Source of the DNA: Christensenellaceae bacterium
GTDB lineage: Bacteria > Bacillota > Clostridia > Christensenellales > Borkfalkiaceae
Reading direction: 5' to 3'
Length of the DNA stretch: 24,000 nt
Assembly (NCBI GenBank): GCA_045651185.1
Contig: JAZRRZ010000021.1
Location: 57,464-81,463, forward strand
Below the pieces are notes generated by a model. That model was not told the DNA's origin. It worked only from the letters and a program-made list of their open reading frames with translations, and searched no databases. Of the stretch, positions 6,829-21,033 are shown in pieces (the first letter of the stretch is position 1; the number at the start of each line of letters is the position of its first letter). The translations under genes were made by a program, and so were the position numbers.

Positions 6829-6862
6829 TATACCCCCTTTTCCGTATTCCTTATGTAGTGTT

Positions 6863-6891
6863 ATTATACAATAATATAAAAACATTGTCAA
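6863..6891 (-). promoter_or_regulatory. Consensus sigma-A promoter for the recombinase gene
   Basis: Minus strand TTGACA (6891-6886), a 17-nt spacer, then TATAAT (6868-6863). The -35 overlaps the TGA stop of the upstream small ORF. Confidence 0.7.
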
Positions 6892-7064
6892 TTCATAATA
6901 CTGGATATAATATGATATTCTTTCATTAATTTTCTCTTAACTTTGTCATACTCATTTTGCGAAATTAATTCTTTTTGCAAAAGTGTTGTAAGCATAGCAA
7001 GTTGCATACTATATTCCAACAACTTTTTATTGGACACAGTTGTCTTTTCTAATTTAACATCCAT
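6888..7064 (-). CDS. Small helical protein upstream of the recombinase (58 aa; SHOCT-like C-terminal motif; possible recombinase accessory factor)
   Basis: ATG at 7064 preceded by AAAGGAGGTG with 4-nt spacing (the track start at 7112 lacks an SD). Sequence MDVKLEKTT...LISQNEYDKVKRKLMKEY resembles the (L/I)IS/TxxEYexKKxxL short C-terminal motif. Function not established. Confidence 0.6.
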   Translation of the reverse strand: MDVKLEKTTVSNKKLLEYSMQLAMLTTLLQKELISQNEYDKVKRKLMKEYHIISSIMN

Positions 7065-7082
7065 TTTCACCTCCTTTGGACA

Positions 7083-7117
7083 TAAAAAATCCTTCTTGCT
7101 CGTCCTAAACAAGAAGG
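7083..7117 (-). terminator. Terminator-like hairpin in the leader of the small ORF
   Basis: Perfect 8-bp stem CCUUCUUG/CAAGAAGG (7117-7110 / 7098-7091), 11-nt loop, then AUUUUUUAU on the minus strand. Ends ~13 nt before the SD of the 6888-7064 ORF. Confidence 0.6.
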
Positions 7118-7145
7118 CGTTTCAAAATATTATTTAATTGTTTAA

Positions 7146-7182
7146 GTTAAAGAAAATGCCGCCTCGCTTTCGCTCGGCGGCA
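7146..7182 (-). terminator. GC-rich rho-independent terminator
   Basis: UGCCGCC/GGCGGCA 7-bp GC stem (7157-7163 / 7176-7182), extendable by GC after a 2-nt internal loop, followed on the minus strand by AUUUUCUUUAAC. Confidence 0.65.
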
Positions 7183-7385
7183 TAAATTGATACACAAAAA
7201 AAGCACCTAAATTTTTCTTAAACTTATAGCATTATAAAATTAAAGAAAGATAAAGACTGCCCCAAAATGCGCTTATATAATACTGATTTTATTGTTTCTC
7301 ACATTTCCCCATACCGACATCATTGCATCGTTTTACAGCCAAATTAAAGGTTTATAAAACTATTAGAATAACAGTCTTATTATTA

Positions 7386-7496
7386 CTAAATATTTATTAC
7401 CCATCGCCTCTCATCACTCGTTTTCTTGCCCATATAAAACATAAGTATGCTCTTAAGAATCTCTTCAAAAGTGTGTATATGCAAATCTTGTTTCAT
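7386..7496 (-). CDS. Hypothetical 36-codon ORF (MKQDLHIHTFEEILKSILMFYMGKKTSDERRWVINI)
   Basis: Below the ORF-track cutoff. ATG at 7496 lies directly after GAGGTGGC and downstream of a good promoter. No recognisable domain; may be a gene remnant or non-coding. Confidence 0.2.
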   Translation of the reverse strand: MKQDLHIHTFEEILKSILMFYMGKKTSDERRWVINI

Positions 7497-7525
7497 GCCA
7501 CCTCACATTCGTTCGGTGGCAACTC

Positions 7526-7554
7526 ATTATAGCCACTCACGCAATTTGCTGCAA
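7526..7554 (-). promoter_or_regulatory. Sigma-A-type promoter
   Basis: Minus strand TTGCAG (7554-7549), a 17-nt spacer, then TATAAT (7531-7526). Confidence 0.55.
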
Positions 7555-7650
7555 TGATGATTTTCGAATAGCTTTTACTCTCTTCGCCGATTTTTGAAGA
7601 AGTTGAAATCAAAATCATTAGGAAATATAAAGAGTTTTATCACTTCACAT

Positions 7651-7695
7651 GATACCCCAACTTTTTTTGCAAAAATTTCCAATTTTGGGGGTATC
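7651..7695. repeat. Nested inverted repeat
   Basis: Outer arms GATACCCC / GGGGTATC (perfect 8 bp, extendable through AT pairs around one extra G at 7686). Inner perfect 12-bp palindrome TTTTTGCAAAAA (7664-7675). TTGACA 5 nt downstream (7700-7705). Confidence 0.6.
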
Positions 7696-7869
7696 GATTT
7701 TGACAATTTTCCCCGTAAAATTTCCACTTTTTTCACCATTTTTATTTAGCAAAAAACGCCATCAAAATCTTCTTCCTAAAAGCCTATTAAATTTATTATT
7801 CTTTACCACTTCACTTCATTTTTTATCCTCCATTTCGTTAAATATATATTTCTTTTGAAAGTTTAATTT

Positions 7870-7906
7870 AAAAAATAAAAAAGCCCAGATTAAAATTTTC
7901 AGAGCT
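7870..7906 (-). terminator. Rho-independent terminator
   Basis: Minus-strand RNA AGCUCUGA-AAAUUUUAA-UCUGGGCU (8 positions: 7 pairs including one G-U, plus 1 mismatch) followed by UUUUUUAUUUUUU. Confidence 0.6.
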
Positions 7907-8014
7907 TTTATAGATTACCTTTCGGCTGTTCAGTTAAAAATTTTGTTCTATGTCCCGTGCACATATAAATATATAATATTCTACACAACTTCAGCTCCTT
8001 TTGCTTTTTTGCAA

Positions 8015-8058
8015 TAGAAAAACGCCTCCGAGATTTTTTCTCGAAAGCGTTCGTTTTT
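8015..8058. terminator. Bidirectional terminator hairpin
   Basis: AACGC...CGAGA-UUUUU-UCUCG...GCGUU (8021-8051) with a 3x3 internal loop. T5 follows on the plus strand (8054-8058) and UUUCUAUU follows on the minus strand. Confidence 0.55.
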
Positions 8059-8079
8059 GAATTGATTAAAATTTTTCAC
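8015..8079 (-). ncRNA. Candidate ~65-nt small RNA (promoter-to-terminator unit)
   Basis: Predicted start ~7 nt after the -10 at 8086-8091. Sequence GUGAAAAAUUUUAAUCAAUUCAAAAACGAACGCUUUCGAGAAAAAAUCUCGGAGGCGUUUUUCUA ends in the 8021-8051 hairpin plus U-run. No ORF. Confidence 0.3.
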
Positions 8080-8085
8080 AATACT

Positions 8086-8115
8086 ATTATAACATAGGTC
8101 ATACTCTCATTGCAA
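8086..8115 (-). promoter_or_regulatory. Extended -10 sigma-A promoter
   Basis: Minus strand TTGCAA (8115-8110), an 18-nt spacer, then TGTTATAAT (8094-8086). One TGAGAGTA repeat unit lies in the spacer. Confidence 0.6.
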
Positions 8116-8186
8116 TAACATTTTACTTTCATTTTTCTCCCAAATTACTATCAATTTACTTTCTTTTTACTCTCACAATACTCTCA
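8102..8186. repeat. Phased short direct repeats (iteron/operator-like array)
   Basis: Plus-strand heptamer TACT(C/T/A)TC starts at 8102, 8124, 8146, 8157, 8168 and 8179, with a weak copy at 8135. All spacings are multiples of 11 bp. Minus-strand reading is GA(G/A/T)AGTA, three copies extended to TGAGAGTA. Confidence 0.65.
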
Positions 8187-8363
8187 CGCCAAAATCCCTA
8201 GTGTTCATCAATCATTTTTTGACCTGAAAAATATAAAAAATTTCACAAATCCACATAAAACCATGCTAAAATTTAGTAAAAAACAGAAAAATTATAAGTT
8301 TAAACAAAAAACAACGGCCAAACGTCCATGTTTTGGAACATATGACCGCTTTTGTAAAAGTTC

Positions 8364-9506
8364 TTACAAATAAGAATATAAATCATTCTTTAACTCACTA
8401 AGTGACGAATATCTTGCGTCTAAATTAGATGACATGCATCTTTCAATTACAGGATAAATATTGTCAGTTATTTTTGGAGCTTGTCTTCCATATAGGATAA
8501 AAGTTATAATATACGCAATTGCATAAAGTTCATTTTTAAACCCATAATCTTTGAATGACTCCAAAAAAGGATCTCTAAATGTCCCTTTATTTGTACTATC
8601 CGAAGACGTCATTTCTTTTGATGTGTCTTTTACTAGTCCAAAGTCGGAAATTTTAATAAAAGGATTACCATAAAAATCTAGTTTGATTAAAATATTTTTA
8701 TAACTTAAATCTCTATGGAACAATCCTATTTTATGAATATATTCTATTCCGCTAAAAAACTGAGCTAGAAGAGACTTCCTTGTTTCTAATGTCAGTTTAG
8801 TGTTATTAGCAGATATGTATTCAAATAATGTATGGTCGCAATATTCCATATTATATGAAAGTTCCTTGTCAAAAAAGCTATAAACTCTTAACAAGTGAGG
8901 GTGTTGACATTTTTTCATTATGTCGTATTCTTGTTTAAATCTTTCAACTTCTTTATCTATAGCCCCTTTTTTTAATTTTTTATATGCAAATTTCTCATTA
9001 TAGTCTTCATCTTTGTATTTATATACATTTGCATAACTTCCACCACCTACAGGGCTAAGTTCGAATGATTTTTTGTTTTTCTTGCGAATTTTACCATCTT
9101 CTAATAAGAAGAATATAGGGTCGTATTCTTTGATAATAAATTTGGGCAAATTCGATGGCAAATCAGAGCCAAAAGAACTTTTTAAATAAGGTTCGGCAGC
9201 TTTTAAGACTTCTTCATAATTTTTATCGATATAAAAGTCATATTCTGTTCCATTAACCATTTCCTTAAAGCTTTTTAAACTTTGAATCACACGTAAATAG
9301 TCACGGCTATCCCCCGCATTAAATCTAGAACCGATTCGGTTATTGAAATCTTTAGCATAAAAATTAATAACACTATGTATATAGGCAAAAAACAAGCCTA
9401 CATCTTTATTTTTTCTAGATACTTCTTCATATATAATAATGTATTTTTCTTCATATTCTTCCGCAAAATCATTTACAAATAAATATACTTTCTTATTTAA
9501 ATCCAT
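8364..9506 (-). CDS. Ser/Thr protein kinase (Hanks-type) with unknown ~155-aa N-terminal domain
   Basis: Gly-loop GGGSYANVY, VAIK-like FAYKKL, catalytic loop FHRDLSYKNILI, DFG SDFGLVK. SD GAGG 5 nt before the ATG. Only 15 nt after the RES gene stop. Confidence 0.85.
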   Translation of the reverse strand: MDLNKKVYLFVNDFAEEYEEKYIIIYEEVSRKNKDVGLFFAYIHSVINFYAKDFNNRIGSRFNAGDSRDYLRVIQSLKSFKEMVNGTEYDFYIDKNYEEVLKAAEPYLKSSFGSDLPSNLPKFIIKEYDPIFFLLEDGKIRKKNKKSFELSPVGGGSYANVYKYKDEDYNEKFAYKKLKKGAIDKEVERFKQEYDIMKKCQHPHLLRVYSFFDKELSYNMEYCDHTLFEYISANNTKLTLETRKSLLAQFFSGIEYIHKIGLFHRDLSYKNILIKLDFYGNPFIKISDFGLVKDTSKEMTSSDSTNKGTFRDPFLESFKDYGFKNELYAIAYIITFILYGRQAPKITDNIYPVIERCMSSNLDARYSSLSELKNDLYSYL

Positions 9507-9521
9507 TTATACCTCTTAAAA

Positions 9522-10268
9522 TTATAATAAATCTAAACGTGTAATAGGGTTTGATGCAATTGATATTCTTTCTACCTTATGTAATCGAGAATTAATAGCA
9601 ACACAATCATTAGGATGAAAAAACACTAAATTATCCCCCTCAGGATGCAGTGAACTTTTAAAAACAATCCCATCAAACCCCATATTAATAAATTGTCCAG
9701 CGAGATATTGTGTGAACCAATAATTATGCCCTATATAATGTGGTTTTGAAAATTCGTTAGCAATTCGAGTTAATAGAGGATATAAAACATCATCATTATC
9801 ATAGTTCTTGGGACGTTTTCTTCTCAAATCAGCAAAACGTAAATCCTTATTAGAAACAAATTCCGCGATAGATATTGTTTCATTTTTTATAGGTCTTAAT
9901 TCATAAATTACAGTATTTGCATCACTAGAGGTATATAAAAATGATACACCTTTACAGTTAAGTCGACCTTCTACTGCTAATTCGTTAGGTGGAGCTCCTG
10001 ATTTATCTTTGTCATATCCCTGAAAAATAGTTGCTCTTGATTCGAGAAAATCATTTAATTCCTCTTCTGTTGATGCTACATCATTTAAATTAAAAATCCT
10101 CCCTCTAAAAAAAGATTTTCCCTTGGTAATCCAACAAGAAAACATTTCTTGATTATTCTCCAAAATTTTTAACAATGGATGACGCGTATCGAATCTATTA
10201 AAATTACTAACAAGTTTTTTCCATTCATAGAAGTCATGTCGAACCTCTTGTCTTAATTGCCTATTCAT
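9522..10268 (-). CDS. RES domain-containing protein (NAD+-targeting toxin family)
   Basis: RES-domain landmarks in order: FFRGRIF (Arg), EGRLNCKGVSFLYTSSDANTVIYELRP (GRxN...YxS...E), DGIVFKSSLHPEGDNLVFFHP (Ser, then hGxNhhhF). SD AAGGAG upstream. Confidence 0.8.
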   Translation of the reverse strand: MNRQLRQEVRHDFYEWKKLVSNFNRFDTRHPLLKILENNQEMFSCWITKGKSFFRGRIFNLNDVASTEEELNDFLESRATIFQGYDKDKSGAPPNELAVEGRLNCKGVSFLYTSSDANTVIYELRPIKNETISIAEFVSNKDLRFADLRRKRPKNYDNDDVLYPLLTRIANEFSKPHYIGHNYWFTQYLAGQFINMGFDGIVFKSSLHPEGDNLVFFHPNDCVAINSRLHKVERISIASNPITRLDLL

Positions 10269-10309
10269 ATTTCTCCTTTGTTATTTTACTACTTCATCGA
10301 CAAAATCGA

Positions 10310-11008
10310 TTATTCCTCTACTTGTGAATACGCTACACCTTCGTCGATTTTGTACATAAGCATACTTGCAAACATTAGTCGCCTAAACGCTTCATCTTTA
10401 TCCAAGCCTATATTTTCGTGTGACTTAGGATTTCTTAATGCTGACATTGAGCCTGCAAACATTTGCATATAACCCATTTGTGTATTTTGGCCCGTATCAT
10501 TTGTTCTATCGCAGAATTCAATAATCGGCTCATTTGCAGAAAACAAACAAGTCATAACAGAAACGCCGTCAGGAATTTTTTCGCCTGGTCTAACCTTCTT
10601 AAAAATCTTCTTTACTCGGCTATTGATTTCAATAAAAGCATCACACGCAGCATTTGCATAATGTCCATTTATATAGAGTTCTTTAGACGATTTTATTACC
10701 ATCGGATGAATAAGCGCCCAAATATTTTCTTGTGGATTATCGCATTTATTATTAAGATAATTGACAATAGCTAAAAGTTCCCCTAAGACTATAATATTTA
10801 GCTTCGCACCTATAAAAAGAATATCTTTTAAGCGGAACAAATCTTTACTAAAATATGGTTCAACTCTTGCAATGCTTTCAGATAATTTTATAATTCCATT
10901 TTTAATTTCATTAATACCTTGCAAATGAAACACTCGTTGCCCCAAATCGGGTTTGATAGACATTGAGTTTGCCCACTCGTGTAAATCTTTAACTAGTTGT
11001 ATATCCAT
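10310..11008 (-). CDS. TIGR02391 / Hypoth_Ymh family protein with ~95-aa N-terminal extension
   Basis: C-terminal LIHPMVIKSSKELYINGHYANAACDAFIEINSRVKK...MGYMQMFAGSMSALRNPKSHENIGLDKDEAFRRLMFASMLMYKIDE matches the family hallmarks as I recall them (HPxI, GHYxxAxxxA, RNPxxH, helical tail). Confidence 0.75.
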   Translation of the reverse strand: MDIQLVKDLHEWANSMSIKPDLGQRVFHLQGINEIKNGIIKLSESIARVEPYFSKDLFRLKDILFIGAKLNIIVLGELLAIVNYLNNKCDNPQENIWALIHPMVIKSSKELYINGHYANAACDAFIEINSRVKKIFKKVRPGEKIPDGVSVMTCLFSANEPIIEFCDRTNDTGQNTQMGYMQMFAGSMSALRNPKSHENIGLDKDEAFRRLMFASMLMYKIDEGVAYSQVEE

Positions 11009-11052
11009 ACTTTACTCCATAATCTTAATAATTGATACAAGAAAGCGAACTA

Positions 11053-12378
11053 CTAAACAGTTCTAAGTGCATTAAAATATAGTTTATATTTGCCATAAAA
11101 ATCTGTTAACTTCTGATAAAACTCAACGTCATCACTTACTAAAGCCGTATGATTAAATTTGTATCCAAATACTAAGGAAACAACACAAGCTACAATCCCA
11201 TCGCCTTCCAATGAAATGTTTTGATTTATATGTTTCTTAAAATATTCTTTTAGTTTTTCTCCAATATCTGTTTTTGGCAGGTTTCCATTTTCAGGCGAAA
11301 TATTAAAAGTATTACCTTCTTTTTCTGCTATAATCCAAAATGTTTGTATAATAATTTCAGCAAGTATACATTCATAGGGCAATTCAACAGTATCTATACC
11401 AACTAAATCGTGACAAAGAATAGCCCTATCAACAATATTTTCAAACTCTCTTGGAAGTAACGAAGCAATTATCTCATTAACTAATAGCTTCGCCTGCGTT
11501 TCCTTAGTGTTTTTACTAAATTTACTTGCAAAAACTGTTAATTTCTTATAGGCTTCTTCTTCATCTAAATTACCTTCATCCAAAATAATCTTGAAATCAA
11601 TGAACTTCCTTAAATATTGAGATGATGCTTTTTCCCCATAAAGTTTATCTATACTTCTACTTAATTGTTCTTTATGTATAGCGAGAATTGTTACAGAATT
11701 AGGTACGTTATCAAAAATATGATGCAACCTTTCTAATGTCTTAATTGCAAAATTAGGAATACAACGGTCTAATTCGTCAACAATAAAAATTATTGGTGTG
11801 ACCTTAGACAATTCACCTAATATTGAAATTACATTTTTTATATCGTTTTCAATATCATTATTCGGATTTTTCGTTTTAAGGCTTATTTTACTTTTTTCTC
11901 TTAATCTTTTTATCTCTTTAGCAGTATTCTTTGTAAAATCGACAAGATCAAAATGAAGCAATTTTTTGGTAACCGCCGATAAAACTATTTCCAATTGAAC
12001 CAACACCTTTTTACCCAAATCTGAAGCTATAGTTTTTAATACATTGTTAACGCATAGTTGATTATTTAGTTCATTTACAATTGTAGATAAAATAGCTAAA
12101 AGAGGTTCTTCATAATAATCTTTTTCCCATGCATTATAATGAATAATAAAATATTCACTTGAAAAATTTTTGCATTCTTCGTTTGTATAATCTTTAGATA
12201 TATCAAGATTTTTAAGTTTTGCTTCTATTTTATTTATTAACCACGTTTTCCCTTGTCCCCATTTCCCTTCAATAGCAAATGTTGTAGGTTTAGACTTTTT
12301 TGCACAATCCTTTACGATTGAAACCACATTATTTACATAATCTTCTCTACCTAATATATCACCATATATAAAACCCAT
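11053..12378 (-). CDS. KAP family P-loop NTPase (no transmembrane insert seen)
   Basis: Walker A EGKWGQGKTWL (the GxWGxGKT/S form typical of KAP), Walker B IIFIVDELDRC (hhhhDxLDRC); 441 aa. Confidence 0.8.
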   Translation of the reverse strand: MGFIYGDILGREDYVNNVVSIVKDCAKKSKPTTFAIEGKWGQGKTWLINKIEAKLKNLDISKDYTNEECKNFSSEYFIIHYNAWEKDYYEEPLLAILSTIVNELNNQLCVNNVLKTIASDLGKKVLVQLEIVLSAVTKKLLHFDLVDFTKNTAKEIKRLREKSKISLKTKNPNNDIENDIKNVISILGELSKVTPIIFIVDELDRCIPNFAIKTLERLHHIFDNVPNSVTILAIHKEQLSRSIDKLYGEKASSQYLRKFIDFKIILDEGNLDEEEAYKKLTVFASKFSKNTKETQAKLLVNEIIASLLPREFENIVDRAILCHDLVGIDTVELPYECILAEIIIQTFWIIAEKEGNTFNISPENGNLPKTDIGEKLKEYFKKHINQNISLEGDGIVACVVSLVFGYKFNHTALVSDDVEFYQKLTDFYGKYKLYFNALRTV

Positions 12379-12422
12379 ATTTTACTCCACATGTTTATAT
12401 AAAATTCATGAAATTTTAAACC

Positions 12423-13130
12423 TCATTTTTTTGTGCAATTTAGTAAGACAATATCTTCTCCTTTTTTAATCCCTGTCTTTCCTGTGTAAAAATCCACTTC
12501 AAGCAACATTAAATCTTTTTCAACTTGATAGCCTTCTTTCATTTCAAAGAAAATGGTTATATTTGTGGTTTCACCATTTGTAAGAACTGTACCTACCCAA
12601 GAAAAATCCTTAACAGCATTTTTGTTGTCAAAATCAGCAAAACTTTTAACAAAACCATTTTCGTCAGTATCGATATGCACGTCAACAGCATTGATATCAA
12701 ACAAGCTCATAATATCATTTAATGGTAAATATACTCCGCTATGATTTCTTAACTTAAAATCGTTTGTATCTAATTTATGGTCTTTTTCATTACTATCAAT
12801 CCTTTTGGTTATATCAAGATTTACTTCAATATAGTTGCCTGACAATGTGGTTTTTTCTATTGAGTCCTTCTCTTTTTGATAAGAAATTGAATCAACTGTT
12901 TTAGCGTAATAAACTTTTATGTCAAAATTATCGTGAACTTCGACAACCTCATTCATAAAATATTTTGCTTCAACTGTTTCTATGGAATTATTAGATTTAC
13001 AACTTCTAACACCAAATATTACTCCCACAAGTGTGCTTATGGCTGCTATAGCAATAATCACATAAATGCCCCATTGTATTGGTTTTTTGAAATTTTCGTA
13101 TTTCTCTAAAAAATTAAAAAATTTTGACAT
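12423..13130 (-). CDS. Single-pass membrane protein with extracytoplasmic beta-rich domain (DUF4352-like)
   Basis: N-terminal TM WGIYVIIAIAAISTLVGVIFGV followed by ~190 aa with a ...YIEVNLDITKR...NDFKLRNHSGVYLPL...ITIFFEM... pattern reminiscent of DUF4352 Ig-like domains. Assignment is tentative. Confidence 0.55.
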   Translation of the reverse strand: MSKFFNFLEKYENFKKPIQWGIYVIIAIAAISTLVGVIFGVRSCKSNNSIETVEAKYFMNEVVEVHDNFDIKVYYAKTVDSISYQKEKDSIEKTTLSGNYIEVNLDITKRIDSNEKDHKLDTNDFKLRNHSGVYLPLNDIMSLFDINAVDVHIDTDENGFVKSFADFDNKNAVKDFSWVGTVLTNGETTNITIFFEMKEGYQVEKDLMLLEVDFYTGKTGIKKGEDIVLLNCTKK

Positions 13131-13168
13131 TTTTACTCCATAGGTTTAATAATTTTGTATTTTTCCCC

Positions 13169-15379
13169 TTAAAACACAGATTCAATCGGTCGCCAAGCAT
13201 CGTCAGCCATATCTATGGAAAACTCTGTGTTATTGATATACAAACAATTGTCATTATCTCGCACGAAACCCCATTGAACACCTCGCTGTTCGGCGTAGTC
13301 CTTGAATGCATTAAATTTATTTTCAATCTGGTCGTCTATATTCTTATTCTTGCCTTTGCTTTCTCCACCTTTTGTTTCAATAATCCAAATAGTACCGTCT
13401 TTCTTTTTTACGATATAATCGGCATAGAACAACCATTGATGACGGAGTCCGTCAATATAAACGATAGAAAAATACTGCTGACCAGAATCACCATTTTTAT
13501 AAACCCATTCAATATCATCACGTTTTTCGCAATGCTGTTCAAAAAGCATTTCTGAAGTGCTCCGTACAACACTTGTAGCAAAACCCGAAGTATAATCGTG
13601 ATAAGCGTTTGAAAGATAATCAACCTCATTTTTTACGTTCGGATCGTATTTGAAAAAGTCTTGTTCGGGAATATGAAACATGCTAGTCTTGGGCTTTAAA
13701 ACAAAGCTCATTTGCTCTGCCATACCCGTGGTAACAGCGCGGAAATCTTGCTTCAACTTATGCTCGTTGTTGATAACGAAAGCGTAAAACTCTCTCGTTT
13801 CAAGAGCAACAAGATTTTTGGACATATTACCGCCCTTACGGAAAAGGCGTTCCAAAATCGTCTTGACCTTTGCCGTCTGCATACTAATGGCAGTTTTAAT
13901 TGCATCAACACTATGAAGCAAGTAGATACCGTGTTTATGTGTATCTACCGCCTTTTTTGTAGACAGATAGTTATCACTCGTTGCAATGGATGCGGTGCGA
14001 ACAAACATTCCCTCAAGAACTTGTCCACGAATATTCGTACCAAATACGTAGCCTGCATCGGCAAGCAACATTTGATTTTGCTTTTTATCGCTACCAAGCT
14101 TATATTTTGCAACAAGACTATCGTAGAGCTTATTCAAAACCTCGCGCTCGCCAAGACCTCCAAAATCAAGATCACGCATTTGTTTTTCAAGAGTAAAGGT
14201 CTTGCACTTATCCTTCAAGAAAAGACGGCGAGTTTCGTAGGCTTTATCAACGCTGGCAAGCAAACCGGCTTTGTACTTTTCATCGAAAGTATATACATAG
14301 CAAAAATCAAGCAAGTCATCGTCATAATGCTTTGCTTCTGGCATTCTACGAATACGACCAATGGTCTGTATTTCAAAGCTCTCACTCATACCTTCACGGA
14401 GCTTGACAAGAATTTTTGCCCTGGGGCAATCCCAACCCGTACTAATTGCTTGCTTCATCAAAAGGAAAACTGGGGTGGCATCGTTGTCGGTAAGATTTTC
14501 GGGCAAATCCTTTTTATCCTCACTCATCCACTTGGACACCATACCGTTGTCGTATGTATAGCCCATAGACTCCAACTTTTTCTCAACAGCAATTATTGTT
14601 TCGGGCTGTGCGTTCGGAAATTGAATTAAAACAAGGGGACGGATATTTTTACCAATGGCGGTATAATGGCTTGCAATATTCTTGCGTTTTTCATCAGCAA
14701 GATCAAGCAGACAATCGTAATCGTCGCCAACCTCCATACCTTCGGTAATGCCTTCGTTTACATAAAGAGCTTTTGTAATTAGTCCTGCGTTTATGACATC
14801 TACCTCGTCGATTTCAAAATACTCAAAGCGTTTATTCTCAATAGCGGTAGCACTTACACGAATAATGTTCTTTGCGGAAAAGGCATCAATAATGGTTTTC
14901 GCCTTTGCGGTGTTGTTAGAATGCTCCTCGTCTATGATAACAATAAATTCGGTATTATTACGATGAGCTTCGGCAATGCGATCAAACAAATTCTTTTTCT
15001 CGCCGTCACGCAACGAAGTATTATCCTTTTTTGTTACCAATTCCCAGTTAATGAACGTGGTGCTTTCCGCAGGAAAACCGCCTTGCAAAGCATCAAAAAG
15101 ACTTTGCGTATGACGGTGCGGTGCAAATTTACGCATCTTTTTACGGCTTTGCTCCTCAAGGTCGCCCTTGCCCGGGCAGAGCCAAATGAAAGCAGCATTG
15201 CTGTTAATTTTAGTTAGATATTCCTCGACAAAATCAATAAGAATAATCGTTTTACCCGATCCTGTAGGGGATTTTACGGTAATCGTTTGCTTGCTATTGC
15301 TGTCGGCAACAAGGTCTATCAGCTTGAGTACAGCTTTTTCTTGAAAATCAAATAAATTGATTGCAATTCCTCCTACCAT
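13169..15379 (-). CDS. res: Type III restriction enzyme Res subunit (SF2 helicase + PD-(D/E)xK nuclease)
   Basis: Helicase motifs SPTGSGKT (I), IIDEEH (II), VSATA (III), QTIGRIRR (VI). C-terminal ADYIV...IWIIETKGGE nuclease motif. ATG overlaps the mod stop (ATGGTAG) with AAGGAGGTG upstream. Confidence 0.85.
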   Translation of the reverse strand: MVGGIAINLFDFQEKAVLKLIDLVADSNSKQTITVKSPTGSGKTIILIDFVEEYLTKINSNAAFIWLCPGKGDLEEQSRKKMRKFAPHRHTQSLFDALQGGFPAESTTFINWELVTKKDNTSLRDGEKKNLFDRIAEAHRNNTEFIVIIDEEHSNNTAKAKTIIDAFSAKNIIRVSATAIENKRFEYFEIDEVDVINAGLITKALYVNEGITEGMEVGDDYDCLLDLADEKRKNIASHYTAIGKNIRPLVLIQFPNAQPETIIAVEKKLESMGYTYDNGMVSKWMSEDKKDLPENLTDNDATPVFLLMKQAISTGWDCPRAKILVKLREGMSESFEIQTIGRIRRMPEAKHYDDDLLDFCYVYTFDEKYKAGLLASVDKAYETRRLFLKDKCKTFTLEKQMRDLDFGGLGEREVLNKLYDSLVAKYKLGSDKKQNQMLLADAGYVFGTNIRGQVLEGMFVRTASIATSDNYLSTKKAVDTHKHGIYLLHSVDAIKTAISMQTAKVKTILERLFRKGGNMSKNLVALETREFYAFVINNEHKLKQDFRAVTTGMAEQMSFVLKPKTSMFHIPEQDFFKYDPNVKNEVDYLSNAYHDYTSGFATSVVRSTSEMLFEQHCEKRDDIEWVYKNGDSGQQYFSIVYIDGLRHQWLFYADYIVKKKDGTIWIIETKGGESKGKNKNIDDQIENKFNAFKDYAEQRGVQWGFVRDNDNCLYINNTEFSIDMADDAWRPIESVF

Positions 15380-17181
15380 GATTCGCCCACCTCCTTGAGT
15401 TCAAAGTTAAAGTAATAGTCAGGGATAATATAAATATCCGTATTAGCAAACAAGTCGCATTGCTCAGTTGTAAAAAGAACGTTTTTAGAAACGTATAAAG
15501 CTTTAAGATCGGGATAATTCGCCCAATTTACTTGAAGCTCGTCCGCTTCTTCATCACTCATAACCATAATGTAATTGCTGCCGTCAATCTTAACGCCATG
15601 CTCGAGCTGAATCATTTCCGTCATGTGTTCCAAGAGAGCATCAGATAGATATTCCTCATCCCGTGATACAAAGTCGGTTTTATAATACTTAAGGTTGAAC
15701 GGCAACGCATGATATTTCCCATAGCCTTCTGCGACATTTTTTAATCTTGGATATGTTTTTGTATCACAAATATCGTTCTCGTTATTTGTACATAAGATAA
15801 ATCTGCGCGTTCCGCCATCTTCTGCATTCAAAGCAACAACAGCATGTCCTGTGGTTGCACTCCCTGCAAAGAAATCCAATACAGTTATATCGTCTTGGGG
15901 ATATAGGCTTATAATTTGCTTGAGTAAATCTACGGGCTTTTTACCATTTGAAAATTCAACTGCGCCTTCTTTAGTGAGATTTTTTGTCGCACCAGTCATA
16001 TCCCAATATGTGCCTTGCAAATCTTTTTTATATAATTCACCGTTTATAATTTCAGCTGTATCTCTCAACCAAACAAAAAGATTGCACACATCATCTTTGT
16101 AGAATTGTTCGTATATTACACCTTTATTCTTTCCTGTTTTTGGGGTATATTCAATGGATAGAACTTCATCATGAATACCTTTTTCTTGGCGGTATTCAAT
16201 AATTCTTGTTCTGATAGAAGATTGTGAGTTAGTAGTTCTAAAAGCATTTATTCCATATTTTTGATATGCTTCTTTGACCGTAATTCCATCTCTCTTGGCA
16301 ATTTGATTTATAGACATTGTAACAACATTTTTTCGCCTATAAACTTTGATTTCGTTACCATCTCCATCAACAGTAGATCCAATATATTCTTTTTCGCCTG
16401 GATTAAGCAAAACAGTAGTATATTTCCAACTTTTCCCCTCATCAATATACCTTTGAATTAAATCGGAGATTTCGGTATAAACATACGGCCCATTAAATAA
16501 CGGCATAAAGTCATAAGACTTAGCGTAAACAAGAATGTATTCGCAGTTTTTCTTAAAACGTTTATCTTCACCACCGCCGGAAGCACCTGCAATATTTTTC
16601 ATATTAACACTTATGATATTTAAGAAATTGCTCTCACCAAAAATATCATCGCAAAGGCATTTAAGCTGCGCCACCTCAATATCACTAATTTGAATAAAGA
16701 TAACACCTTTTTCAGAAAGAAGCTCTTTTGCGATTAGCAAACGCTTTTCCATAAAGGAAAGCCATTTAGAGTGACGGAAAGAATCCTCTTCAGCTACATA
16801 GTTATCATCGTAAACAAAATCTTCGTGCCCCGTGTTGTATGGGGGATCGATATAGATTAAGTCGATAGCACCCTTGTGCGTTTTCTCCAAGAGATAAAGA
16901 CTATGCAGATTATCGCCTTCAAGCAAAAAGTTATAGCGATTATCGGGGACGAGAGATATTTCTCTTTCAGGCACTTCCGTGAATACGGGAATGTTTGTTT
17001 GCATAGCAATATCGACCTTTTCCTCGTGCTGTTCCCATACAAGCCCATATTTCTTTGAGATGAGTGCATTTGCAATCTCACCGAGAGCGACGAGCATCTC
17101 ATCATCGGTTTTATGTTCTTCTTTGATTTTATCTAAAAACGCAAGCATGCGCTGACGCTTTAACTGTGAAAGGTTGGGCAT
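15373..17181 (-). CDS. mod: Type III R-M Mod subunit (beta-class N6-adenine/N4-cytosine DNA methyltransferase)
   Basis: Motif IV IYIDPPYNTG precedes motif I VLDFFAGSATTGHAV (beta-class order) with a long variable region between them. 7-nt overlap with res. Confidence 0.88.
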   Translation of the reverse strand: MPNLSQLKRQRMLAFLDKIKEEHKTDDEMLVALGEIANALISKKYGLVWEQHEEKVDIAMQTNIPVFTEVPEREISLVPDNRYNFLLEGDNLHSLYLLEKTHKGAIDLIYIDPPYNTGHEDFVYDDNYVAEEDSFRHSKWLSFMEKRLLIAKELLSEKGVIFIQISDIEVAQLKCLCDDIFGESNFLNIISVNMKNIAGASGGGEDKRFKKNCEYILVYAKSYDFMPLFNGPYVYTEISDLIQRYIDEGKSWKYTTVLLNPGEKEYIGSTVDGDGNEIKVYRRKNVVTMSINQIAKRDGITVKEAYQKYGINAFRTTNSQSSIRTRIIEYRQEKGIHDEVLSIEYTPKTGKNKGVIYEQFYKDDVCNLFVWLRDTAEIINGELYKKDLQGTYWDMTGATKNLTKEGAVEFSNGKKPVDLLKQIISLYPQDDITVLDFFAGSATTGHAVVALNAEDGGTRRFILCTNNENDICDTKTYPRLKNVAEGYGKYHALPFNLKYYKTDFVSRDEEYLSDALLEHMTEMIQLEHGVKIDGSNYIMVMSDEEADELQVNWANYPDLKALYVSKNVLFTTEQCDLFANTDIYIIPDYYFNFELKEVGESW

Positions 17182-17212
17182 GTCATTTCTCCTTCTTGTT
17201 AATTAAATATTC

Positions 17213-17998
17213 TTAGTGTAGTTTCTTATGGGATATCCATTTTGCTTTATTTGGTGTTATTACTAATATGTCAATCGGCCCACCAACAGTTTTATTTACA
17301 TTTGTAAAGCGCATAGTATCTATTGTTGTGTTGATAGCATATCTTACAAAATCTATTGCATCTTGTAAAGTCATTAAAGTCCACAAAATAACATTTTCTC
17401 CGAGAAATATGGTTTGATTTTTAGGTAAGACAAGAGAATCTCCAACATTTACTGGTCCATTAGTTGAATTTAAGGTTAAATTTGAAACCTCTATAGGACT
17501 TTGACACATATAATGAGTTTTAACAATACGAGTTATAGTATCAATTTCTCCATCCCATTTTGCCCCAGTTCCATTAGCGGATATTTGATTGCAAATGTTT
17601 TGTGGCCCTGTGATAACTTGATAAACACTTTGTGTCTTTTGACCATTTATCAAATCATATCCCGCAACAATAAAATGAACTTCTGCGTTAGGGTCTATAC
17701 TTATAATATGGTTTTTTAAATTATTTGCAGTATCATAAGTGGATGTACTTGCAGTTACTTGATTGTCAATGTAATCATATATGTATCCTGTTATATTTTT
17801 ATTTTGTAATGATGCTGCTCCACAAGTTGAAATACCACAATTATTCGGGCAAAGAAATGTTTTTTCTTGTGTATCGAAATAATGTCCCGTTTGTATATTT
17901 ACAGGAATATTAGGAGCAATTTGAGATGAAAAACTAATTCTACTATCACTACCCATTACAATCCCTTCTGTTGTCCATACTGTTACAATTAATGACAT
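17213..17998 (-). CDS. Proteasome beta / HslV-like Ntn hydrolase, orphan (no ATPase partner)
   Basis: N-terminus MSLIVTVWTTEGIVMGSDSR aligns with HslV [20 protein letters not shown] (nucleophile at residue 2, Asp 16 residues later). ANGTGAKW corresponds to the GSGS loop. C-terminal VGGPIDILVITPNKAKWI matches the proteasome-type GGxhxhhhI strand. SD GGAGA 7 nt upstream. Confidence 0.65.
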   Translation of the reverse strand: MSLIVTVWTTEGIVMGSDSRISFSSQIAPNIPVNIQTGHYFDTQEKTFLCPNNCGISTCGAASLQNKNITGYIYDYIDNQVTASTSTYDTANNLKNHIISIDPNAEVHFIVAGYDLINGQKTQSVYQVITGPQNICNQISANGTGAKWDGEIDTITRIVKTHYMCQSPIEVSNLTLNSTNGPVNVGDSLVLPKNQTIFLGENVILWTLMTLQDAIDFVRYAINTTIDTMRFTNVNKTVGGPIDILVITPNKAKWISHKKLH

Positions 17999-18030
17999 AT
18001 AAATTTCTCCTAAGTTTAATTTACTACACT

Positions 18031-18055
18031 AAATATGACATTTAATGTCATATTT
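18031..18055. promoter_or_regulatory. Perfect 11-3-11 palindrome (candidate operator)
   Basis: AAATATGACAT-TTA-ATGTCATATTT lies between the Fic stop (18065) and the Ntn hydrolase start (17998). No U-run follows on either strand. Confidence 0.5.
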
Positions 18056-18064
18056 ATAAAATTT

Positions 18065-18943
18065 TTAGTCGTTTATTTCTTCGTAATAGTAAGAGTAGTC
18101 AACGCCTTTCATGAAGACTTCCCTATCGTTAATCTTGTCCGTCAATGCGTTTGATAAAAGTTCTTTAATCATCGTGCTATCAACTATGCTTTTACGCATT
18201 GCTTCTAAATAATCTTTTTTATCAATTTTAGACCAGTCAACGCATTTGCCTAAATTTTTCTTAAATATCAAGTCAAGCCAAATTCTTGTACTTCTTCCGT
18301 TCCCTTCCATGAAAGGATGTGCTATATTCATTTCAACGTATTTTGCAACAATTTCTTCAAAAGTGTTTTCTGGCATTTTCTCAATACTCTTAAGATTATC
18401 ATCTAAATACATGGCAGGGGCAAAAGCAAAACCACCTTTTGCAATATTTATCGTTCTTATTTGACCGGCAAAGTTATACAGTCCACCAAACAAATAGGAA
18501 TGGATTTGTTGTAAGCCCTTAACAGTCCCCACTTCTATTGAGTCAAGCAACGAGCTATCAAACAGCGAATATGCTTTTTGCTTACTCTTTCCGTCAACGC
18601 TTTCTTCACTTCTTGTAAGCCACGCTATAAACTCTGAACTGATTTTACTTGGAAATTCTGCAAGTAAAGTCATAACACCATCCGAATCAATCGCATCGGA
18701 CTTATATTTCTTACCATCGTTAGCGGTGATTTTCAGTTGGGTAGTGGCGCTAACCAACTGGCTATTTTCTTTCTTTAATTTTGCTTTAAGATACTTCCAG
18801 TAGTTTCTTGACTTTTCATAAGATGGTTCTTTCCTTATTGCCGAAATAATATCTAAAACGCTAAAATACCAAGTATTTTTATCGTCCACCCAAACGGCTC
18901 TTACTGGCGTATCATTAAAAAATCTAATTGAAATTTTTGACAT
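18065..18943 (-). CDS. Bro-N domain / Fic (COG2184-type) fusion protein
   Basis: C-terminal Fic motif [14 protein letters not shown] preceded by [28 protein letters not shown], as in class I FicT/VbhT-type toxins. The N-terminal 110 aa ([29 protein letters not shown]...EFIAWL) resemble Bro-N. Confidence 0.82.
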
Positions 18944-19000
18944 TAAATTTTACCTCGTTAAACGCTACGTTTATCAAATATGTTAGACATAATCAGCAGG

Positions 19001-19192
19001 CTAATCGTCAATTTTAATATTATTCTTTACACAAAATTCGTGAATCGCCTTTTGCCCTTCGTAGTTAGGTTCGTTTAATCCCCTTTCCCAACGATTAATA
19101 GTAGCAAACGAAACACCTATTTCCTTTGCAAACTTTTCTTGACTTAAAAACATCTTTAGTCTTATTGCTTTGATTTTTTCGCCAAAAGTCAT
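19001..19192 (-). CDS. XRE-family helix-turn-helix transcriptional regulator (63 aa)
   Basis: IKAIRLKMFLSQEKFAKEIGVSFATINRWERGLNEP is a classic HTH_3 pattern. Start placed at ATG 19192 (MTFGEK) downstream of the promoter and a GAGGTG SD; the track start at 19243 lies inside the promoter. Confidence 0.85.
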   Translation of the reverse strand: MTFGEKIKAIRLKMFLSQEKFAKEIGVSFATINRWERGLNEPNYEGQKAIHEFCVKNNIKIDD

Positions 19193-19223
19193 ACTACACC
19201 TCAAAATAAAAATGTATAACAAT

Positions 19224-19252
19224 ATTATAACATAATTATTCACTTTTTACAA
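19224..19252 (-). promoter_or_regulatory. Sigma-A promoter of the XRE gene
   Basis: Minus strand TTGTAA (19252-19247), a 17-nt spacer, then TATAAT (19229-19224). Confidence 0.6.
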
Positions 19253-19611: not shown

Positions 19612-21033
19612 TTATTTTCGTTGTAGTACTACTAGAGTCTCGACGTGTTTGGTTTGCGCAAACATGTCAAATGGTTTTACAAGTTTAATTTTATATCTTT
19701 CTTGTAAGTTTTCTATCTTTTTGATTTCACCGTCAATAACACCTAAAGTGCCCACAAGAAGTCCTATGTCACGCACCAAGGTTGATGGTTTACAAGAAAC
19801 GTATATTATTTTATCAATATTGCTCTTTATTATAGAATTAATAACCTTAATATCACACCCCTTTCTTGGTGGGTCTAAAACGAGGCAAACGTCGTGATTG
19901 TTCTGTTTTTCACTGGCTATCAATTGTGGCAAAATGTCTTCACACTTACCACAATAATTAGTAATTTTATGGTCAAGTTTATTGATTTTTGCAAGGTCAT
20001 TTGCACATTCTACTGCTTCAGCAATAATTTCAACACCGATTGCCTTTTTGGCATTTTGGGCAAGTATTGCAGTCATTAAACCTGCACCACTATACGCATC
20101 TATAACCACAGTATTTTCATTGGCATTAACAAAAGACTTAACATTAGAATAAAGTTTATTACACACAGAATTGTTTATTTGCATAAAACTCTGCACGCCA
20201 ATTTTATACTTTATGCCAAGCATTTCTCCTGTATAATCTGCGTTTCCATAAATCAACTTAAACTTGTCACCATAGATAACGTTTGTTTGCTTGTTATTAA
20301 TATTAATATAAAGCGAAAATGGTAGTTTAATAAACTCTTTTAATATTTCAACAAGTTTATCAATGCCTCTAATATTTTCCTTACATACAACGGCTGTTAT
20401 TATTAAATTTCCTTTTATTTCTTTAACAGTAATTTCCCTTAAATCGCCTGTATTTGTAAATTCGTTATAACCTCTTATGCAATTATCATTTATGTATTTA
20501 GTAAAAGCAGAAATAATATCTTTTGTCCAAAAAGCATTTATTGGGCAATCGGCTATAGGCACAACCCTGTGCGAATTTTCGGCATAAAAACCGATAACCG
20601 TGCCTTTATCAGTCATACTAACTGGTAATTGAAGTTTGTTGCGATATCTATATTCATTGTCTCCACAAACTGCAGGCAAAACATCTACGCTAAGGTTTGC
20701 AACTTTTTTAAAAGTTTCTTTTATAGATTGTTCTTTGATAGCTAGTTGATTTTGATATTTAATGTGTTGCAATTGGCAACCACCACATTTAGTAAAAACA
20801 GGACATTTTGGTCTTACACGCTCTTCAGCAGGCGTTAAAATTTCAAGTGCCTTAGCATAAACGCATCTAGATGCTACTTTTAGCACTTTATACTTAACTT
20901 TCTCCCCCACAAGCGTGTATGGAACAAAAATTATATTATTGTCTTGTTTAATTATGCCTTCACCATTTGAGCCTATTGCGCAAACAGTACCAATGCACTC
21001 TTGATTTTTCTCCATAAACATCCTATTTAACAA
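19612..21033 (-). CDS. rlmD: 23S rRNA (uracil-C5)-methyltransferase, RlmD/RumA family (TRAM + Fe-S + SAM MTase)
   Basis: N-terminal TRAM-like domain, Fe-S cluster CPVFTKCGGCQLQH, SAM site IDAYSGAGL, DPPRKG, catalytic YVSCKPSTL. True start may be ATG 21021 or 21015. Confidence 0.8.
   Translation of the reverse strand: MLNRMFMEKNQECIGTVCAIGSNGEGIIKQDNNIIFVPYTLVGEKVKYKVLKVASRCVYAKALEILTPAEERVRPKCPVFTKCGGCQLQHIKYQNQLAIKEQSIKETFKKVANLSVDVLPAVCGDNEYRYRNKLQLPVSMTDKGTVIGFYAENSHRVVPIADCPINAFWTKDIISAFTKYINDNCIRGYNEFTNTGDLREITVKEIKGNLIITAVVCKENIRGIDKLVEILKEFIKLPFSLYININNKQTNVIYGDKFKLIYGNADYTGEMLGIKYKIGVQSFMQINNSVCNKLYSNVKSFVNANENTVVIDAYSGAGLMTAILAQNAKKAIGVEIIAEAVECANDLAKINKLDHKITNYCGKCEDILPQLIASEKQNNHDVCLVLDPPRKGCDIKVINSIIKSNIDKIIYVSCKPSTLVRDIGLLVGTLGVIDGEIKKIENLQERYKIKLVKPFDMFAQTKHVETLVVLQRK

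Follow-up and report, generated by a model that had tools for sequence, protein, structure and literature searches.

A predicted serine N-terminal nucleophile peptidase of proteasome fold as a candidate stand-alone effector of the bacterial defence-island gene pool

What does an orphan relative of proteasome subunits do directly upstream of a Type III restriction-modification (R-M) operon? The question is raised by a 24,000-nucleotide (nt) stretch of a Christensenellaceae bacterium genome (contig JAZRRZ010000021.1, positions 57,464 to 81,463; the whole stretch is called the window here), in which a minus-strand open reading frame (ORF) encodes a 261-amino-acid (aa) protein with the N-terminus MSLIVTVWTTEGIVMGSDSR and the hallmarks of an N-terminal nucleophile (Ntn) hydrolase (Table 1). 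Proteasome homologues other than HslV, Anbu and BPH are numerous in bacterial and archaeal genomes. For the family represented here we propose, as about an even bet, a mobile single-gene peptidase with a predicted Ser nucleophile that belongs to the defence-island gene pool and acts as a stand-alone effector alongside restriction systems without being one of their subunits; its immune role is one that we infer. The new element is a context signal, reported to be lacking in the 2021 survey of proteasome homologues by Fuchs, Alva and Lupas (PMC8665760), which offers a first testable functional lead for an orphan family.

The ORF is a real gene and not a chance frame, because 1588 homologues, the closest of them 94% identical, came up at E<=1e-3 in a word-indexed search, and an exhaustive profile search returned 2273 clusters at 50% identity under the same threshold (1035 at <=1e-10 and 231 at <=1e-30). 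Its ribosome-binding site is strong. In sampled listings the homologues are single-domain proteins of about 215-290 aa, truncated fragments excepted; all named ones are called 'hypothetical protein', and none carries a Pfam domain.

Fold and predicted active site

We regard the proteasome/Ntn fold as solid, as judged from the predicted structure. The AlphaFold2 (AF2) model, built from alignment A1 with a mean predicted local distance difference test (pLDDT) score of 86.8 and a predicted template modelling (pTM) score of 0.82, has the alpha-beta-beta-alpha Ntn sandwich of proteasome subunits, with helices H1 (69-80) and H2 (87-101) present and a C-terminus of two short strands (242-247 and 252-256). 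Foldseek against the PDB gave 162 matches at E<=1e-3, and the best 50 of these 162 all had a probability of 1.00, with target-normalised template modelling (TM) scores of 0.5-0.68 and E values of 3e-7 to 1e-5 overall. The top match was a designed Anbu (5loy_A; E=3.4e-7, TM 0.51/0.57), the other 49 of these 50 were 20S proteasome chains, and no HslV chain was among them. The best match among viral models was a Siphoviridae protein entered in UniProt as 'Proteasome beta type-2 subunit' (E=3.2e-12, TM 0.71/0.83). The Ntn/proteasome fold proposed in a sequence-only reading, an earlier reading of the window made from its letters and reading frames, was thus borne out by the Anbu and 20S beta matches.

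At the level of sequence the relationship is distant. The sole Pfam match was Proteasome (PF00227) over residues 4-28, at 14.7 bits (E=0.025) and short of the gathering threshold of 22.4 bits, and NCBIfam gave no match to the protein. Sequence matches in the PDB were proteasome chains, nearly all of them beta, apart from chance matches (two in the single-sequence and one in the profile search); the best was the beta subunit 8oix_H (E=0.025 when the single sequence served as query, 0.0016 when a profile of 33 sequences did). Comparisons by hhalign with single sequences typed by hand reached probabilities of 1-6% and were used for residue correspondence only. With a Thermoplasma beta template typed in this way, the protein is colinear through the C-terminal MT(L/V)..(A/G)(I/V)D...GG.ID..VIT. 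The window protein's version of this block, MTLQDAIDF...VGGPIDILVIT, is found family-wide and pairs with the corresponding stretch of archaeal beta, in agreement with the C-terminal pattern picked out from sequence.

Residue conservation was counted in 388 members aligned to the family hidden Markov model, the number of aligned members varying by position. Position 2 is Ser in 349 of 369 members, Thr in 17 (archaeal loci L079 and L092 among them) and another residue in 3, and all full-length members start with M-S or M-T. As the exchange at this position, directly after the initiator Met, is one of Ser for Thr only, Ser2 (or Thr) is a solid prediction for the N-terminal nucleophile of an active site that appears to be conserved intact: Asp18 is kept in 370 of 375 members, Arg20 in 368, Lys46 in 371 of 377 and Gly60 in 371 of 378, which puts conservation at >=95% for all five residues and at >=98% for Asp18, Lys46 and Gly60. 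In a smaller alignment of 33 members with 38-81% identity to the query, M1, S2, D18, R20, K46, G55, S57, C59, G60, G113, G145, W148 and G150 are invariant. In the HMMER alignment to 8oix_H, S2 falls on Thr1, D18 on Asp17 and R20 on Arg19, and the NGSGS loop is matched by NGTGA, so that the placing of Ser2, Asp18 and GTGA at the nucleophile, Asp17 and GSGS positions in the sequence-only reading can be seen directly. Methionine aminopeptidase cleaves Met before small residues such as Ser, and under this established rule Met1 would be removed and Ser exposed.

Lys46 and Gly60 are likely equivalents of Lys33 and of Gly47 of the oxyanion hole, on account of their invariance, of a 14-residue spacing identical to that of K33 and G47, and of the predicted strands 47-49 and 55-60. 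In hhalign Lys46 is paired with K33 of Thermoplasma beta; the HMMER local alignment pairs it with K40 instead, which counts against this assignment. Because of this pairing, and because the hhalign template was typed by hand, Lys46 as Lys33 is a correspondence that we infer.

Two insertions set the protein apart, as the sequence-only reading had noticed. The first lies at the 'S3/S4' site, adjacent to the active site, where the interval from Arg20 to Lys46 holds 25-26 residues in most members versus 13 in the proteasome. The interval between H3 and H4 is bimodal in the family, with about 28 or about 53-59 residues; the window protein has the long form, found in about half of the family, which in the model adds predicted strands 162-165, 169-178, 181-190 and 196-199 and is without counterpart in archaeal beta (hhalign, template again typed by hand).

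The protein is probably a catalytically competent member of its subfamily of proteasome-beta-like Ntn hydrolases, and a mechanism can be proposed. With Met1 removed by methionine aminopeptidase and no propeptide to be processed, Ser would become the N-terminal nucleophile and would work with Asp18, Lys46 and Gly60 as Thr1 works with Asp17, Lys33 and Gly47 in the proteasome. The family-wide 12-residue loop insertion adjoins the substrate channel, and the long form adds a beta-hairpin module between H3 and H4. Given these two insertions, the enzyme may be an ATP-independent, substrate-selective peptidase or amidase instead of a gated bulk degrader, and possibly not a stacked double ring. Of the two modes of action suggested in the sequence-only reading, self-compartmentalisation may be hindered by the H3/H4 insertion, if the argument of Fuchs et al. 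applies (PMC8665760), and a single-turnover peptidase found no support.

Relation to known proteasome homologues

Orphan proteasome homologues with insertions are a published kind. [quoted passage not shown] Compared by published description only, the window protein is like PMI in its propeptide-less Thr/Ser1-Asp17-Lys33-Gly47 core, its S3/S4 and H3/H4 insertions, its lack of an AAA+ partner and the scatter of its relatives over bacteria, archaea and, occasionally, phages. It differs from PMI-3 and PMI-4 in that their long pore-loop insertion is absent from its AF2 model, and from PMI at large in its association with R-M systems, bacteriophage exclusion (BREX) systems and defence islands, whereas the survey reported that genomic context and co-occurrence gave no functional hint for the new proteasome homologues (PMC8665760). 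The family described here is itself unnamed in Pfam, NCBIfam and PADLOC.

Anbu, the best match among solved structures, is likewise a bacterial homologue without a known unfoldase, but it is 16% identical to the window protein, which is missing the long C-terminal H5 helix and carries two extra insertions. Anbu operons hold ATP-grasp and transglutaminase-type genes, and the 25 commonest Pfam families of each flanking set included neither; an Anbu identity was rejected on the lack of H5 in the model and of such operon genes among the frequent neighbour families. With 20S beta subunits the protein shares the fold, the nucleophile position, the equivalents of Asp17, Arg19 and Lys33, the GxGx loop and the C-terminal MT.(D/Q)(D/E)..D...GG.ID..VIT block; it differs in falling below the Pfam threshold, in having Ser and not Thr, in being horizontally mobile, and in being without a propeptide, an alpha partner or a regulatory ATPase. 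Connectase lacks H1 and H2, bears a two-helix lid at S3/S4 and is restricted to methanogens. The window family is unlike it on each count (H1/H2 present, S3/S4 insertion non-helical, taxonomy broad), and this identity was rejected as well.

The sequence-only reading had called the protein 'proteasome/HslV-like', and of this label the first half stands. The first 25 residues are colinear with HslV, its nucleophile too is exposed by Met removal (as proposed here for the window protein), and B. subtilis CodW relies on a Ser at the N-terminus; on these grounds the gene might encode a classical HslV-type self-compartmentalised protease whose AAA+ unfoldase is encoded elsewhere in the genome. We consider this the least probable of all the readings weighed here, far down the scale. 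The hhalign comparison with HslV (sequence typed by hand) covers those 25 N-terminal residues, the predicted structure is nearer to Anbu and 20S beta, with HslV missing from the 50 best structural matches, and the window protein, at 261 aa compared with about 175, is much larger and carries two insertions. The phyla in which it occurs are patchy, no HslU is adjacent, and, as had been said from sequence, no ATPase partner is apparent: the window contains no gene for an AAA+ unfoldase, and no ATPase recurs beside the homologues at 86 loci. The H3/H4 insertion should moreover hinder ring stacking, following the argument of Fuchs et al. (PMC8665760). HslV as the nearest relative was accordingly rejected.

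Neighbours, mobility and the question of partners

A scan of one genome per species gave 80 loci, and 86 non-redundant loci were analysed after duplicate removal. In bacteria the family extends patchily over Bacillota, Bacteroidota, Spirochaetota, Chloroflexota, Acidobacteriota, Nitrospirota, Verrucomicrobiota-type lineages and one deltaproteobacterium, and archaeal loci were found in Methanoregula and Thermoplasmatales; the closest locus, at 81% identity, is in a metagenome-assembled genome (MAG) of Christensenellaceae. Genes for R-M subunits recur most often as neighbours (HsdM-like at 9 loci, HsdS at 7 and HsdR at 4), and the Ntn gene lies in the same orientation inside Type I operons with, for example, the orders HsdS-Ntn-HsdM, HsdM-Ntn-HsdS and HsdM-HsdS-Ntn-x-HsdR. 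Homologues of R-M genes make up 22 of the 281 genes one or two places away, versus 2 of the 431 genes at least six places away (odds ratio 18, Fisher p=9e-8), and an R-M subunit homologue stands within three genes on either side at 12 of the 86 loci, in varied gene orders. A PADLOC summary of the neighbours was dominated by redundant R-M models and yields no total defence fraction. The location in an immunity island, proposed from sequence, therefore holds both for the window, by its island genes, and for the homologues, whose association with R-M and defence genes is statistically clear.

There is no obligate partner. When the neighbours within four genes on either side were clustered, no cluster occurred at more than 9 of the 86 loci, and the many upstream neighbours of about 250 aa showed, in a sensitive comparison, no kinship to each other or to the Ntn protein, so that a conserved partner gene was rejected. 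Fic was rejected as a partner too, since it is not conserved beside the homologues. On the question raised from sequence, whether homologues repeatedly lie beside Type III or Fic genes, Type III genes occur at 3 of the 86 loci and Fic does not recur; R-M genes in general are enriched.

The neighbourhood that raised the question is as the sequence-only reading described it, with the gene upstream of Type III mod-res and a Fic gene beside it (ORF, gap count, Pfam, PADLOC and NCBIfam): the stop codon of the Ntn gene is followed, after a gap of exactly 31 nt, by the start of mod (17181), and 66 nt separate the Ntn gene from the Fic gene upstream, which ends at 18065. No minus-strand terminator was found between Fic, Ntn, mod and res in a promoter and terminator scan, in which promoter-like sites were fewer than the shuffle mean and terminator-like sites only about 2 standard deviations above it, and which was used solely for this absence. 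Co-transcription with mod-res is therefore plausible, and the Ntn gene is probably expressed together with them.

Could the Ntn protein then be a dedicated accessory or regulator of the adjacent Type III system, acting on or with Mod or Res? The short same-strand gap free of terminators would fit, and the order Ntn-mod-res recurs in L012 and L015. Across the window and these two loci, however, the Ntn proteins are 72-81% identical, compared with 30-45% for Mod and 20-38% for Res, so the three loci hold different Type III systems; between the window and L015 alone the figures are 81% for Ntn, 30% for Mod and 20% for Res, the last over half its length. Equally close Ntn relatives lie beside Type IIG enzymes or inside BREX operons. 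In blastn comparisons of the window with six loci, homology comprised the ORF and at most 37 nt of flank, and because DNA homology is confined in this way the Ntn gene is a discrete single-gene cassette, which either moves independently or has had neighbouring systems swapped around it. With this limit of homology at the ORF borders, the mismatch in identities and most homologues lacking a Type III neighbour, the specific accessory role suggested from sequence is largely refuted, and we think it very improbable.

Other members illustrate how varied the company of the cassette is. Among 13 members with Pfam-labelled neighbourhoods, the window's own gene included, Type III systems accompany two (the window and P0019), Type I operons embed two (P0083 and P0107), and BREX type 1 operons hold two between PglX and PglZ (P0023 and P0013), one of these two proteins being recorded on >150 contigs. 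A Type IIG enzyme stands beside P0009 and a DpnII-type Type II system beside P0114, where it is kept in two different flanks. Single members lie with an Mrr nuclease, with a UvrD-like helicase and RelB, with a Pycsar PycTM effector and Fic, and in a prophage, in the moron position between portal and large terminase (TerL). Close relatives (69-81% identical) are found with unrelated Type III systems, with Type IIG or inside BREX, and distant ones inside Type I operons, beside DpnII-type or Mrr genes, or in the prophage.

These contexts could mean that the Ntn protein is a module tied to methylation-based immunity in general, in one of two ways. As a guard or in retaliation, it would sense or destroy factors with which phages counter restriction (mimics of the Ocr/ArdA type, S-adenosylmethionine hydrolases). 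In 'restriction alleviation', it would keep the nuclease in check during methylation of the host by a newly acquired system, as ClpXP does with the Type I subunit HsdR in E. coli. Nine neighbouring systems among the 13 labelled members combine methyltransferase and restriction functions in five architectures, the Ntn gene often sits immediately 5' of the methyltransferase gene or is flanked by R-M genes, and a tight clade (>=69% identity) swaps its partner system within the same class. Yet R-M systems are the commonest defence systems, so that any defence-island gene will mostly neighbour them, most loci are without a nearby R-M gene, the Pycsar effector, helicase and prophage contexts do not fit, and no sequence feature indicates a specific target. 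We hold such a tie, in either version, to be improbable, though less so than a Type III accessory.

A stand-alone effector beside restriction systems is the reading that we prefer. The cassette occurs preferentially as the first gene of, or within, methyltransferase-based restriction operons (Type I, II, IIG, III and BREX), and also in other defence islands and in the moron position of a prophage; the protease would cleave a phage or host protein during infection, beside the restriction systems. Functional analogues are PrrC, the anticodon nuclease in EcoprrI, and Lit of e14, a zinc metalloprotease of single-gene abortive infection: both are small genes in or beside a restriction operon or solitary, possibly phage-triggered hydrolases, but their folds are unrelated to that of the Ntn family.

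Several observations weigh against such an immune role. Of the 86 loci, 74 have no R-M subunit homologue within three genes on either side, and the immediate neighbours repeatedly include housekeeping families such as aminotransferases, oxidoreductases and glycoside hydrolases; on these grounds the gene could simply sit in variable regions. The queries for the R-M enrichment were drawn from near neighbours, which favours near matches. One of the 13 labelled loci is without any defence gene, PADLOC-DB v2.0.0 returned 0 families at E<=0.1 for the Ntn protein, and in the literature, of which coverage was incomplete, we found no paper linking proteasome-like or Ntn proteins to anti-phage defence; among the listed papers citing the survey, the one mentioning phage concerned ESCRT systems and was unrelated. 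Homologues are also rare on phage records: tblastn against 50,697 GenBank phage records gave no match, and one IMG/VR contig was matched. A weak match to phrog_5990 was seen for 14 of 33 members. On these results a phage origin was rejected, and the family is mainly cellular and occasionally phage- or prophage-borne.

The Ntn protein might accordingly be a non-immune accessory or stress peptidase, or mobile cargo, that lies near defence genes through shared integration hotspots. Beyond the housekeeping neighbours and the locus devoid of defence genes, the uninformative context seen by Fuchs et al. in 2021 speaks for it (PMC8665760), as does an rlmD-like tRNA/rRNA U5-methyltransferase gene that borders three otherwise different Ntn loci (Table 1) and so suggests a recurrent integration hotspot next to it. 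On the other side stand the same-orientation embedding within operons of Type I and BREX systems, a few nt from the adjoining genes and in several independent gene orders, and the 18-fold enrichment of R-M genes over the distal genes of the same loci; since embedding of this sort is typical of defence cargo, hotspot sharing alone is hard to invoke. We consider non-immune cargo unlikely, and rank it first among the alternatives, ahead of the methylation-tied module, the Type III accessory and the HslV-type protease.

More tentatively, and clearly with less confidence than in the stand-alone effector as such, the family may form a novel anti-phage system of one gene. This gene would be a plug-in cassette of Type I, II and III R-M and BREX operons, and its product, an ATP-independent Ser-Ntn protease, would either degrade the proteins by which phages counter restriction or set off abortive infection once restriction has been evaded. 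If so, no other bacterial proteasome homologue would have preceded it in an immune role, and the orphans of Fuchs et al. would gain a first function. If an immune role holds, a protease of proteasome fold joins the repertoire of prokaryotic immunity, and the question becomes how it cooperates with methylation-based defence.

The window's island and features of individual loci

The window's island extends over about 14 kb (5071-19243) between housekeeping genes and looks integrative, with a large serine recombinase at one end. One flank holds dnaX and genes for a sigma factor, SpoU, mini-RNase III and an amidase, and the other an rlmD-like methyltransferase, a DnaJ-like gene and trpS. At the bounds of the island, a search for att-like repeats gave only short AT-rich chance matches, and no RNA families or tRNAs were found in the window. 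About 1.25 kb beside the recombinase (7113-8363) contain no ORF above 70 aa, no tRNA and no Rfam match. Upstream of the Ntn gene, the Bro-N/NmFic-type fusion agrees over nearly its whole length with PDC-S04, a single-gene candidate in PADLOC. Of the promoter-like sites on the minus strand, the best stands ahead of the HTH_3 gene and Fic.

Table 1. Positions of features in the window and, where a locus is named, at loci of relatives
Feature	Position	Strand	Basis or remark
Ser-Ntn hydrolase gene (long form, H3/H4 insertion)	17213..17998	minus	ORF; 261 aa; homologues; AF2; Foldseek
Stop codon of Ntn gene (TAA)	17213-17215	minus	
Shine-Dalgarno AGGAG	18007-18011	minus	8 nt 5' of ATG; seen in sequence
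Ser2 codon, predicted N-terminal nucleophile once Met1 is gone	17993..17995	minus	aligned with Thr1 of beta subunits
Asp18 codon (Asp17 equivalent)	17945..17947	minus	Arg20 (Arg19 equivalent) two codons on
Lys46 codon, putative Lys33 equivalent	17861..17863	minus	conservation, spacing, hhalign
Gly60 codon, putative Gly47 (oxyanion hole) equivalent	17819..17821	minus	end of predicted strand 55-60, before helix 1
Insertion 1, flexible loop/hairpin, aa 21-45, 'S3/S4' site	17864..17938	minus	pLDDT 47-53
Insertion 2, four-strand beta module, aa ~160-205, between H3 and H4	17384..17521	minus	pLDDT ~90
Type III Mod methyltransferase	15373..17181	minus	N6_N4_Mtase 1e-34; PADLOC MTase_III 4e-126
Type III Res helicase-nuclease	13169..15379	minus	ResIII 1e-15; PADLOC REase_III; 7-nt overlap with mod
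Bro-N + Fic adenylyltransferase-like protein	18065..18943	minus	Pfam Fic 1e-12; NCBIfam NmFic equivalog 8e-87; PADLOC PDC-S04 7e-153
Small HTH_3 gene	19001-19243		5' of Fic gene
Best promoter-like site	19252-19224	minus	
Large serine recombinase	5071-6891		at one island end
Ser/Thr kinase	8364-9506		
RES-domain protein	9522-10268		
Hypoth_Ymh	10310-11008		
KAP NTPase	11053-12378		PADLOC PDC-S20
235-aa membrane protein	12423-13130		
rlmD-like border gene, window	19612-21033		
rlmD-like border gene, L012	1675-3366		
rlmD-like border gene, L105	5409-6764		
Type I-embedded subclade with DUF6414, L011	7230-7988		
Type I-embedded subclade with DUF6414, L108	6229-6987		
Type I-embedded subclade with DUF6414, L109	3700-4458		
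Bro-N protein in Type I operon, L108	5313-6164		
PglX comparison, L096	3576-6168		
PglX comparison, L097	3577-6168		
PglX comparison, L102/L103	3585-6181		
Tandem Ntn paralogues, L084	10001-10750 and 10811-11575		MAG locus
Tandem Ntn paralogues, L090	4681-5481 and 5542-6297		MAG locus
Disrupted Ntn copy, L088	9896-10150 and 10261-10716		frameshifted/split

In the subclade embedded in Type I operons, the Ntn protein has 268 aa and is preceded directly, with a gap of 12-13 nt, by a DUF6414 protein, the pair lying between hsdM and hsdS; the two genes may form a module specific to this subclade. A separate Bro-N protein is encoded in one of these operons (L108). In the BREX hosts, some contigs have an intact PglX (863 aa) and others a split one (about 625 + 250 aa), which could reflect phase variation or a frameshift, and the stretch from PglX to PglZ holds four to six genes without annotation.

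Tandem Ntn paralogues 60 nt apart occur at two MAG loci (L084 and L090), both copies keeping Ser2, Asp18, Lys46 and Gly60; by analogy with the alpha/beta duplication, such pairs could be a hetero-oligomer in the making. At L088 a copy is disrupted, by frameshift or splitting, and the Ntn gene can therefore decay.

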